Shown piece by piece: positions 30,824 through 32,033 of a DNA stretch of 64,000 bases (its first letter is position 1; each line of letters starts with the position of its first letter). The notes beneath the pieces are model-generated. The model was given only the letters and a program-made list of their open reading frames with translations. It made no database searches and was not told where the DNA came from. The translations under genes were made by a program, and so were the position numbers. The DNA is taken from the sequence record PV654397.1, one strand, 5' to 3'. This stretch comes from Escherichia phage WPEC5.

Positions 30824-31045
30824 TTACATGTTATGATTTGGTATACAGTACACAAATACTAAATTGGAAAAGTGTTCAGTACTGGAATATTTTGCTAAAT
30901 CTGTTATATGGAAGTAGACATCTTTGAAATTATCATTCTCAAATGTCGTTATTTGTAAACAGTGTGTGGGTCTGAAAATATAATAATAAAATATATCATC
31001 TTCAGCCACAACTGTATGGTTTTTGTAGCGTTCAATTTTTTTCAT
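30824..31045 (-). CDS. hypothetical protein (73 aa)
   Basis: Internal ATG forms ATGA overlap with upstream deaminase-like gene. Confidence 0.45.
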   Translation of the reverse strand: MKKIERYKNHTVVAEDDIFYYYIFRPTHCLQITTFENDNFKDVYFHITDLAKYSSTEHFSNLVFVYCIPNHNM

Positions 31046-31410
31046 GTGTGAATAATTTCTTTGACCCCATATTCCATAATTGCCAACGTACAAATCTCAC
31101 AAGGCTTGGCAGGGACTGGAATACCATCTTTACTTACCCGTGCAATCAACAAAGTATGAACTTCAGCACGAGAAGCCAGCAAACATGAGATTTCAGCATG
31201 AAGAAATTCACCTTGTGGACGACCAGCACGGATTGCAAAACCTTTCTGTACTGGGTGAGTATGTGTGTAAGAATTAGTACGTGTTGCCAATACACGACCT
31301 TTCTTATCTAGTGCACGAGCAATCACACGATAACGTTTGTAGCTCCCCACTTGCTCGATTGGTGGCATCCGTCGCAATTCTTCAATTAGTTTCTCAAGTT
31401 TACGATTCAT
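31042..31410 (-). CDS. cytidine/deoxycytidylate-deaminase-fold protein (122 aa)
   Basis: Zinc-binding signature HAE...PCEIC with about 30-aa spacing; distinct from cd at 41207..41683. Confidence 0.55.
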   Translation of the reverse strand: MNRKLEKLIEELRRMPPIEQVGSYKRYRVIARALDKKGRVLATRTNSYTHTHPVQKGFAIRAGRPQGEFLHAEISCLLASRAEVHTLLIARVSKDGIPVPAKPCEICTLAIMEYGVKEIIHT

Positions 31411-32033
31411 AAGTCTAAGTCTATACCCTTTTCAAATGATTTCTCTAGAACCCAAAGTTTACATTCTTCACTCTCCAAATGCATCTTTGCCTCTTTCTGT
31501 TGTTCTATTGTACAAGACTTTATAAATTCACGCAAGGCTTCTATTGTACTTTTTATATTTTTTATGTCTTCCAGAATTGTTTCTTTGGCTTCAGCATCAA
31601 TTACAGATGAACTCCACCCGTGACGTTCTTCCCAAACTGTTTTTGCTGGATTGTAAATTGATGATGTAGAAATGACTGCATGGATCTTATTAAACGTATC
31701 GTCTGCTTCTTGTTGGGTGTAATCACCATAAGTGTTTAGCACATTTTTGTATAGTTCATCGATTGCCTCATCATAAGTATCACCACCGCAATCTAACTCA
31801 TAATCATGTGCTTGTACCCATTCATCATCTTGCTCAATGTACATAGGTGAGATGAATTCTACCCAAAATTGTGTCTTTGTATTCAGAGCTTTAAATGATT
31901 CAATGCGGTTTGTGATTGGACACACATCATGTGGTTCGATATCAATCCTTGGGGGAACCATATCTCTGTTGATGAATTTAGGATGACCCAAAATCCACCA
32001 GTACTTTTCAGATGTAGTCATAGTAATCTCCAA
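31407..32033 (-). CDS. hypothetical protein (208 aa), translationally coupled to deaminase-like gene
   Basis: 4-nt overlap with downstream gene; no motif. Confidence 0.5.
   Translation of the reverse strand: MEITMTTSEKYWWILGHPKFINRDMVPPRIDIEPHDVCPITNRIESFKALNTKTQFWVEFISPMYIEQDDEWVQAHDYELDCGGDTYDEAIDELYKNVLNTYGDYTQQEADDTFNKIHAVISTSSIYNPAKTVWEERHGWSSSVIDAEAKETILEDIKNIKSTIEALREFIKSCTIEQQKEAKMHLESEECKLWVLEKSFEKGIDLDL

Follow-up and report, generated by a model that had tools for sequence, protein, structure and literature searches.

A predicted four-stranded mini-deaminase and its acidic neighbour in Escherichia phage WPEC5

Why does a phage that encodes a canonical deoxycytidine monophosphate (dCMP) deaminase also carry a second, smaller gene with a zinc-deaminase signature, and does the acidic protein encoded immediately upstream of it belong to the same functional unit? 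The questions arise from a 64,000-nucleotide stretch of Escherichia phage WPEC5 (sequence record PV654397.1), referred to at its full length as the window. In a sequence-only reading of the window, a protein of 122 amino acids with an HAE...PCxxC motif was proposed as a second deaminase-fold protein, with its start codon overlapping the stop of an upstream open reading frame (ORF) of 208 amino acids, the two suggesting a two-protein unit. The small protein, termed the mini-deaminase here, was found to be a genuine deaminase-fold protein, with a PF00383 score above the cut-off, a confident structural model, deaminases as its fold matches and an invariant motif. The two-protein unit is weakly supported. 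The features on which the argument turns are listed first.

31042-31410, minus strand: mini-deaminase gene, 122 amino acids from its ATG; PF00383 at 26.2 bits, phrog_174 at 1e-11.
31192-31200, minus strand: codons of H71-A72-E73, a zinc ligand and the glutamate that serves catalysis, within helix-2; invariant in alignments A1 and A3 (described below).
31090-31104, minus strand: codons of P103-C104-E105-I106-C107, both cysteines being zinc ligands, where helix-3 begins; P103, C104 and C107 invariant in A1 and A3.
31407-32021, minus strand: partner gene, 204 amino acids from ATG 32021; phrog_16370 at 3.7e-94, with no function assigned there.
31407-31410, minus strand: ATGA overlap of the partner stop and the mini-deaminase start (...GAC TTA TGA and ATG AAT).
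41207-41683, minus strand: canonical dCMP deaminase, 158 amino acids, HAEMNAL...PCYTC, isoelectric point (pI) 6.69; PF00383 at 78.5 bits.

The signature can be read directly from the translation, with HAE at residues 71-73 and PCEIC at residues 103-107. When ORFs of at least 60 amino acids in all six frames of the window were scanned for [HC]AE-x15-45-[PC]CxxC, the pattern was found in two only, 31042-31410 and 41207-41683 (both on the minus strand), and as both also match PF00383 it is not a chance match. The second is the canonical dCMP deaminase that the earlier reading had recognized elsewhere in the window. A profile search and a structure comparison had been proposed as checks on the smaller protein, and the first placed it above the PF00383 gathering cut-off of 25 bits, if narrowly. 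Searched as a single sequence against the PDB, the mini-deaminase retrieved no deaminase at a significant E-value, and no NCBIfam model came near its cut-off, the best scores being 12.8 bits, obtained with the homotetrameric cytidine deaminase model TIGR01354 (cut-off 113.65), and 10.6 bits. The family profile matched a series of solved dCMP deaminases in the PDB, from cyanophage S-TIM5 (4P9C, 6.5e-10), S. mutans (2HVV, 2.7e-7), human (2W4L, 1.8e-5) and T4 (1VQ2, 3.5e-5), with weaker matches to TadA (7.7e-4) and cytidine deaminase (0.017), so that the nearest solved relatives by profile are dCMP deaminases, ahead of all TadA and cytidine deaminase structures.

Conservation was assessed in two alignments, A1 with 24 close homologues and A3 with 66 distant ones at 29% mean column identity. 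Residues H71, A72, E73, P103, C104, C107 and N46 are invariant in both, H52, P53, Q55, A59 and R91 are kept in at least 90% of the aligned sequences, and no invariant residue lies ahead of A31. That the zinc ligands and the glutamate remain invariant at such a low mean identity argues for selection on catalysis. N46 is the asparagine at the end of strand 2, a position that we take to be a sugar contact in related enzymes.

An AlphaFold (AF2) model computed from the 24-sequence alignment reached a mean predicted local distance difference test score (pLDDT) of 90.1. It comprises helix-1 (residues 3-14), strands 1 and 2 (28-34 and 40-45), an extra helix (53-61), helix-2 with the HAE motif (72-80), strand 3 (86-92), helix-3 from PCEIC (105-114) and strand 4 (118-121), with the C-terminus at T122, and thus has the three-layer alpha/beta/alpha deaminase core in its usual order of helix-1, strands 1 and 2, helix-2, strand 3, helix-3 and strand 4. 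Comparison of the model with the PDB by Foldseek gave deaminases only as top matches, namely the cytidine deaminases of M. tuberculosis and M. marinum, human dCMP deaminase and blasticidin-S deaminase, with E-values from 1.5e-4 to 2e-3, template modelling (TM) scores of about 0.5 and a probability of 1.00, and DNA-deaminase toxins were reached at an E-value of about 0.1 only. The fold match is real but divergent.

The sequence-only reading had named two grounds for giving it up, a motif outside any deaminase fold and a catalytic glutamate absent from homologues, and neither was encountered, the fold being present in the model and the glutamate invariant across the 24 and the 66 homologues. The idea that the motif is incidental, or that the protein is a degenerate, non-catalytic remnant, could draw on the narrow Pfam score, on the empty single-sequence search of the PDB and on the 8 of 149 family representatives with variant motifs, but it is effectively refuted by the match of the family profile to a solved dCMP deaminase, by the confident deaminase-fold model and by the invariance of the zinc ligands and the glutamate.

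What the model does not contain is the fifth strand of the fold, either antiparallel or running parallel after a helix-4. The chain stops at T122, right past strand 4, and helix-4 and strand-5 are therefore missing. A fifth strand, formed as a hairpin or placed after helix-4, is usual in every deaminase division, and truncated deaminase clades have been noted (Iyer et al. 2011, PMC3239186); that survey describes no phage mini-clade. The early end of the chain is shared by part of the family, as 53 of 141 members end 15-17 residues past PCxxC, right after strand 4. Most of the others are about 10 residues longer, a tail, present in about half of the members, which could fold into a hairpin with a strand-5 in the manner of the cytidine deaminase/blasticidin-S deaminase division. 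Some members of about 100 amino acids appear from their sequences to begin at strand 1, which leaves no space for helix-1, and to be without strand-5 as well. Representatives noted for such short chains or for the variant motifs are P0072, P0081, P0085, P0091, P0161 and P0162.

The family itself is large. When 1.84 billion cluster representatives (clusters at 50% identity) were searched by profile, 4514 clusters were retrieved at E<0.001, 1091 of them at E<1e-10, and the best 150 matches are all stand-alone proteins of 96-166 amino acids, with no fusions among them. The strict motif is kept in 141 of 149 cluster representatives, while the others have HSE, HGE, RAE or an altered cysteine motif and may be inactive or altered. 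PF00383 was matched by all 66 sampled members, with a best value of 3e-16. The members are basic throughout (median pI 9.65; above 8.5 in 97%), the mini-deaminase itself having a pI of 9.84 and a net charge of +9, and they share the signature N-S-Y-x-K-T-H-P-x-Q ... L-H-A-E ... R ... A-K-P-C-x-x-C ... Y/H-T, of which the protein of the window carries N46, H52, P53, Q55, H71-E73, R91 and P103-C107. Members score 77-199 bits on the family profiles, as against 29 bits for a generic deaminase found at one of the loci discussed below (L018).

By tblastn, 195 GenBank phage records contain a family member. One group consists of RaK2-like jumbo phages of Escherichia, Klebsiella, Salmonella, Erwinia, Yersinia, Pectobacterium, Serratia, Cronobacter and Xanthomonas, and others are phiKZ-like phages (PHIKZ260), Aeromonas phages of about 115-124 kb and T4-like cyanophages. 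Among 185,579 bacterial and archaeal genomes, a search with a narrow pattern of limited sensitivity gave a match in only 2 short contigs of metagenome-assembled genomes, and from these sequence searches the family appears essentially phage-restricted. phiKZ gp260 belongs to the same family as the mini-deaminase (34% identity over 95% of the query in tblastn, E 3e-15), and it and the homologues from Aeromonas Plateaulakevirus and T4-like cyanophages, which score 77-95 bits on the family profiles, are small stand-alone genes of large lytic phages that differ from the WPEC5 gene in having no upstream two-domain partner. Literature searches on PHIKZ260/gp260, jumbo-phage deaminases, phage deaminases in anti-defence and deaminated signals found no characterization of the family. 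What was already known is the domain-level annotation of relatives and the textbook superfamily; what is newly described is a phage-restricted clade of four-stranded, basic mini-deaminases that includes phiKZ gp260, together with a clade-specific coupling to an acidic two-domain protein.

The simplest account of such a gene would be that of a plain, redundant dCMP deaminase that boosts the supply of deoxyuridine monophosphate for the synthesis of deoxythymidine triphosphate. Several GenBank records annotate it so, the label "dCMP deaminase" being attached to homologues in 121Q, GAP32, CBB, Serratia BF and some phiKZ-like phages and cyanophages; the solved structure that ranks first by profile is that of a genuine dCMP deaminase, and the gene lies near nrdD and nrdG. 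Yet the annotations rest on the PF00383 domain match alone, and as some Joint Genome Institute records label family members TadA, both names are unverified transfers at the domain level. The RaK2 genome paper names gp495 as the dCMP deaminase of that phage and counted no other (PMC3622015), and the RaK2 homologue, ORF518, was left as a hypothetical protein in GenBank, noted only as similar to phiKZ ORF260.

Comparison with dCMP deaminases points the same way. HAE in helix-2, PCxxC in helix-3, the asparagine at the end of strand 2 and an alignment from helix-1 to strand 4 are all shared, but the mini-deaminase is without helix-4 and strand-5, the S-TIM5 enzyme being about 20 residues longer and that of the window about 27. 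An N-terminal motif of dCMP deaminases, presumably phosphate-binding, is not conserved in the mini-deaminase, and the mini-family has in turn a THPxQ helix, an "AGRPxxI" segment before HAE and a longer strand 3 and loop with the conserved R91. It does not have the helix-4 division architecture of a dCMP deaminase proper, and no curated NCBIfam equivalog matches it. The pI is 6.7 for the canonical enzyme and about 9.8 for the mini-deaminase. When the family profile was aligned with the canonical enzyme of the window by hhalign, the match had a probability of 96% and covered residues 8-131 of 158, with the last 27 unmatched. Direct BLASTP of the one protein against the other gave E=13, so the two are not recent paralogues. 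A merely redundant enzyme is thus considered unlikely.

The other named relatives fit no better. Homotetrameric cytidine deaminases (M. tuberculosis 4WIF/3IJF) and blasticidin-S deaminase (1WN5/2Z3G) are the best fold matches and of similar size, about 120-130 amino acids; the mini-deaminase differs from cytidine deaminase in having HAE rather than CAE, PCEIC, no PCGxCRQ and no strand 5. TadA shares HAE/PCxxC and the asparagine of strand 2, and a basic protein such as the mini-deaminase would suit RNA binding, but it is some 30-50 residues shorter than TadA, has KPCEIC in place of an EPCxMC-type motif, and matches only weakly by profile (7.7e-4 and worse). The helix-4, strand-5 and two C-terminal helices of the TadA/Tad2 clade (Iyer et al. 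2011, PMC3239186) are missing from it.

The explanation favoured here, with a confidence somewhat short of an even chance, is a nucleotide-level enzyme with a specificity or regulation unlike that of the canonical dCMP deaminase, which is allosteric. The mini-deaminase would be a minimal zinc-dependent deaminase of the cytidine/dCMP-deaminase superfamily, predicted to be catalytically competent, in which the C4-amino group of cytosine would be hydrolysed to give uracil by way of a zinc-hydroxide and a glutamate proton shuttle, and in which a homo-oligomer probably completes the pocket, as with other enzymes of this fold. Candidate substrates are free cytosine (deoxy)nucleotides, namely deoxycytidine triphosphate (dCTP), deoxycytidine diphosphate (dCDP), cytidine monophosphate (CMP) or modified dCMP. 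PF00383-type phage enzymes have diverged among dCMP, dCDP and dCTP as substrates, and the dCTP deaminase of PBS1 is related to the T4 dCMP deaminase (PMC12697855). A free cytosine nucleotide is the best guess to be had from sequence comparison, being favoured by the profile nearness to dCMP deaminases and by the nearby genes nrdD, nrdG and, in GAP32 and its relatives, one like thymidylate kinase. Given the position of its gene near nrdD and nrdG, the enzyme would feed or reshape the pyrimidine pool.

27571-29403, minus strand: nrdD, anaerobic ribonucleotide reductase, 610 amino acids, 1.6 kb downstream of the mini-deaminase.
26788-27258, minus strand: nrdG, the nrdD activase gene, after nrdD with a DUF4326 gene in between.

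Both genes thus lie within 2-4 kb of the mini-deaminase in the window, and the linkage of nrdD to the deaminase and its partner is seen again in RaK2 and GAP32, with nrdD downstream of the two in RaK2 and a thymidylate-kinase-like gene and nrdD downstream of them in GAP32. Several observations weigh against this explanation. A canonical dCMP deaminase is already encoded in the window, which makes a role in the nucleotide pool partly redundant; the mini-deaminase is without helix-4, strand-5 and the N-terminal motif of dCMP deaminases; the family pI of about 9.65 would rather be expected of nucleic-acid binders; the gene stands, outside the RaK2-like clade, among small ORFans (genes without known relatives), with no link to nucleotide metabolism; and the literature search found no biochemical data for any family member.

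Some of these same observations would suit an enzyme that edits nucleic acids, whether host or phage tRNA, mRNA or single-stranded DNA, by C-to-U or TadA-like A-to-I deamination, as a tool of host takeover or against competitors or host defences. The family is very basic, it has lost the C-terminal elements by which nucleotide enzymes close their pocket, the phage already owns a dCMP deaminase, and the occurrence of the gene in the ORFan regions of many large phages is that of a mobile accessory. When 80 viral-contig loci, gathered with alignment A1, were sorted into 44 groups, 37 of them outside the RaK2-like clade, no recurrent neighbour was found in more than 3 groups outside that clade, and the only frequent "neighbour" proved to be an antisense ORF artefact within the deaminase gene itself; the absence of a family-wide neighbour indicates that the gene moves on its own. 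Set against an editor are the profile, nearer to dCMP deaminases than to TadA, the marginal fold matches to DNA-deaminase toxins, and the absence of any additional nucleic-acid-binding domain. In addition, 68 of the 80 loci have neither the partner nor any other conserved neighbour that could serve as an inhibitor, so that a dangerous mutator would be left unguarded there. An editor, taken jointly with the role for the partner considered further below, is regarded as possible though doubtful.

The second question concerns that partner. The length of 208 amino acids given for it earlier applies to its longest reading, from TTG 32033; it is nearly certain that the gene in fact starts at ATG 32021, giving 204 amino acids, because GGAG lies 6 nucleotides upstream, the homologues share this N-terminus and the gene is annotated with 615 nucleotides in its relatives 121Q, G17 and fEgEco12. 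All homologues begin M-T/N-x-x-E/D-K-Y-W/Y-W (MTTSEKYWW or MNxxEKYWW). The AF2 model of the partner (pLDDT 86.4) has an N-domain at about residues 1-114, made of three long strands with flanking helices, a disordered stretch at 118-134 and a two-helix hairpin at 143-198. Within the N-domain K6, Y7, W9, H13, P30, H31, T37, N47, T48, W53, E55, H72, D77, G79, G80, E85 and Y91 are invariant. Among these, H13, H31, E55, H72, D77 and GG have the appearance of a metal site or a catalytic one.

The partner gave no match in Pfam, NCBIfam, PADLOC or PDB sequences and no fold match, its profile, whether full-length or of the N-domain alone, retrieved coiled-coil noise or nothing from the PDB, and Pfam showed no consistent family among 17 partner homologues. 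PADLOC defence models likewise matched neither the mini-deaminase nor the ORF of 73 amino acids that follows it. A profile of the N-domain retrieved 219 clusters, mostly stand-alone proteins of 96-127 amino acids from Vibrio, Shewanella and uncultured phages, which shows it to be a widespread phage module in its own right, to which the hairpin has been added. The occurrences placed by coordinates are these:

31680-32021, minus strand, in the window: partner N-domain.
3959-4342 at locus L003: partner N-domain.
5001-5312 at locus L014: partner N-domain.
5001-5486 at locus L016: partner N-domain.
5001-5330 at locus L018: partner N-domain.

The two-domain form with the helical hairpin was found beside the deaminase only, and the stand-alone N-domains are not beside it, with no mini-deaminase within about 5 kb in 4 of 4 such contexts. 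In one of these, L018, from an uncultured phage, a generic PF00383 protein lies 3.5 kb from the N-domain; its 29 bits on the family profile compare with 95-151 for true members. The gene of this generic deaminase of 128 amino acids (8835-9221) is followed immediately by a pair of RNA-ligase genes (PF09414, Rnl1-type; 9230-10330), an arrangement that hints at RNA repair or modification.

The claim of a two-protein unit stood in part. The ATGA overlap is present at 31407-31410, as had been read, and the mini-deaminase immediately follows every two-domain partner examined, in 121Q, fEgEco12, G17, RaK2, GAP32, a metagenomic relative and 12 viral contigs; by coordinates the adjacency extends to the other RaK2-like records common to both tblastn tables, about 68 GenBank records in total. 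It persists down to partner identities of 35-40% while the flanking genes differ, the gene upstream of the pair encoding 119 amino acids in the window, 77 in RaK2, 68 in GAP32 (after a tyrosyl-tRNA synthetase gene) and 111 in L019, and the gene downstream 73, 57, 64 and 358 amino acids, respectively. The junction is a 4-nucleotide ATGA overlap in 8 of the 12 partnered viral contigs and an 11-nucleotide overlap in 2, with differing junction sequences. What did not hold is the generality of the unit. The partner is present at 12 of the 80 viral-contig loci, exactly the closest ones (at least 54% deaminase identity, all jumbo contigs), and missing within 4 kb at the other 68. In Xanthomonas phage XaC1, which is RaK2-like and has the same WGR-gene neighbourhood, the partner profile finds nothing and the deaminase is preceded only by ORFs of 83 and 29 amino acids. 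Profile searches found neither partner nor N-domain within 3-6 kb of the deaminase in phiKZ, Aeromonas phiA019 and five metagenomic loci, and two cyanophage neighbourhoods, judged by annotation only, have no partner-like gene.

This distribution bears on the idea that the two proteins are subunits of an obligate two-subunit enzyme, with the partner supplying the missing strand, a cap or specificity. The unbroken adjacency in all phages with the two-domain partner, the overlap kept in 10 of 12 loci despite the differing junctions, the restriction of the hairpin-bearing form to the deaminase gene, the opposite charges of the two proteins (the partner has a pI of 4.58 and a net charge of -20) and a deaminase start codon without its own Shine-Dalgarno sequence are what such an enzyme would lead one to expect. 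XaC1 nevertheless retains the deaminase without the partner, and equally truncated members of 100-108 amino acids that end at strand 4, such as the 103-residue P0043 in L007, occur without it, so that the partner cannot be the general supplier of the missing strand. Moreover, all the phages with a partner belong to one clade in which gene order is conserved, and the conservation therefore amounts to a single evolutionary observation. An obligate heteromer is judged quite improbable, an estimate that overlaps with those given to the other explanations. Under the favoured explanation of a nucleotide-level enzyme, the partner would be a lineage-specific accessory of RaK2-like jumbo phages that may modulate the enzyme there and that is predicted to be dispensable for the fold and, in most phages, for function.

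How far expression ties the two together was examined from the junctions and the flanks of the gene run.

30824-31045, minus strand: ORF of 73 amino acids, start ATG 31045, with an ATGA overlap (31042-31045) with the deaminase stop; no family match.
32040-32062, minus strand: terminator-like hairpin with a 10-bp stem and a T-run, in the 45-nucleotide gap upstream of the partner.
29517-29626, minus strand: three terminator-like hairpins, after the small genes and before nrdD.

The sequence AAGGGTATAGACTTAGACTT directly before the mini-deaminase ATG holds no Shine-Dalgarno sequence at 5-10 nucleotides, and translation of the mini-deaminase for this reason probably relies on ribosomes that have completed the partner gene. 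The overlap as such is not special to the pair, because 24 of the 123 same-strand junctions of the window (about 20%) have a 4-nucleotide start/stop overlap and the start of the ORF of 73 amino acids in turn overlaps the deaminase stop. This ORF is annotated as a gene of 222-225 nucleotides in fEgEco12, 121Q and G17, is absent from the recurring neighbour clusters of the deaminase loci, and is not conserved beyond Asteriusvirus.

Terminator-like sites number 8 in the window, against 3.0 +/- 1.6 expected, and the G17 record has terminators annotated independently at both equivalent places. As the hairpins bracket the run in the window and in G17, they probably mark the upstream and downstream bounds of a transcription unit of about seven genes, with the pair as its first two, in the order partner, deaminase, ORF of 73 amino acids, HrgC-like membrane protein, and ORFs of 72, 136 and 61 amino acids. 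No promoter is claimed, since a promoter scan of the window was at chance (28 found, 28.1 expected). Co-transcription together with probable translational coupling would mean that both proteins are made together; in the RaK2-like clade the two are thus probably co-expressed and translationally coupled, and a functional link between them is possible.

Proteins made together invite a further thought, namely that in RaK2-like phages the acidic partner is a co-made regulator, an inhibitor or a nucleic-acid mimic that holds a nucleic-acid editor in check. This is the other half of the joint proposal described above as possible though doubtful. The order of acidic protein, ATGA overlap and basic enzyme is kept across genera, the charge contrast is marked (+9 on 122 amino acids here beside -20), and Foldseek gave weak matches of the partner to double-stranded RNA-binding domains, at E-values of 0.36-0.57, which are not significant. 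But 30% of the ORFs of the window have a pI below 5, and the acidity of the partner is therefore not unusual and carries little weight as a sign of DNA mimicry.

A kinship with HicB-type antitoxins was also considered, because a helix after three strands and a turn-helix motif, "GGDTxEEAI" in the N-domain, recall HicB; it is a lead at most and was set aside as evidence, since hhalign aligned the "DCGGDTxEEAI" motif with a HicB sequence at a probability of only 0.8%. There being no significant antitoxin homology and no partner at 68 of the 80 loci, a toxin-antitoxin or enzyme-inhibitor pair was likewise not recognized. The boldest form of the editing idea is that the mini-deaminases are the smallest natural polynucleotide or immune-signal deaminases, of about 100-122 amino acids, which edit host tRNA, RNA or DNA or destroy a cytosine-containing signal such as cyclic CMP and which in RaK2-like phages are gated by the acidic partner; it is judged unlikely.

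The window belongs to an Asteriusvirus (121Q/PBECO4-like) jumbo coliphage. The 5 kb around the deaminase have 95-98% DNA identity to Escherichia phages WPEC3, Ecwhy_1, fEgEco12 and CMSTMSU, and 84-87% to 121Q, PBECO4 and G17, all jumbo myoviruses of about 350-385 kb; 121Q and G17 have been placed in the genus Asteriusvirus. By a crude gene call, 121 of the 128 genes of the window lie on the minus strand, tightly packed. An indel hot spot among close relatives lies at 32835-33398 (minus strand), where the window has ORFs of 126 and 59 amino acids and fEgEco12, PBECO4 and G17 hold a WGR-domain gene of 323 amino acids, while in 121Q both the WGR gene and the ORF of 126 amino acids are missing; this indel accounts for the query coverage of 89-96% in the DNA search. 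Elsewhere in the window, the stop of the canonical dCMP deaminase overlaps the start of an ORF of 88 amino acids (40944-41210) by four nucleotides, GTGA, at 41207-41210 on the minus strand. ORFs of 250 and 183 amino acids at 37577-38877 (minus strand) are joined by an ATGA overlap, and as their fEgEco12 counterparts g218 and g219 are annotated as a Sir2-like protein and a NUDIX hydrolase, they may be a pair related to nicotinamide adenine dinucleotide; a PhoH-like gene (35447-36886) lies just downstream of them.

For the annotation of related phages, the findings mean that the label "dCMP deaminase" on members of this family is an unverified transfer, and that the upstream gene is not to be assumed a subunit. 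If active as predicted, the mini-deaminase would be about the smallest working form of the cytidine-deaminase fold, a four-stranded core of about 100-122 amino acids, and if its substrate were DNA or RNA, such compact enzymes would be of interest for base-editor engineering. With more than 1000 sequence clusters, and with phiKZ among the phages that carry it, the family represents a very common and unstudied accessory function of large phages, and its substrate would explain why a second deaminase is kept beside a dCMP/dCTP deaminase, be it for tuning of the nucleotide pool, for DNA modification or for an attack on host nucleic acids or signals.

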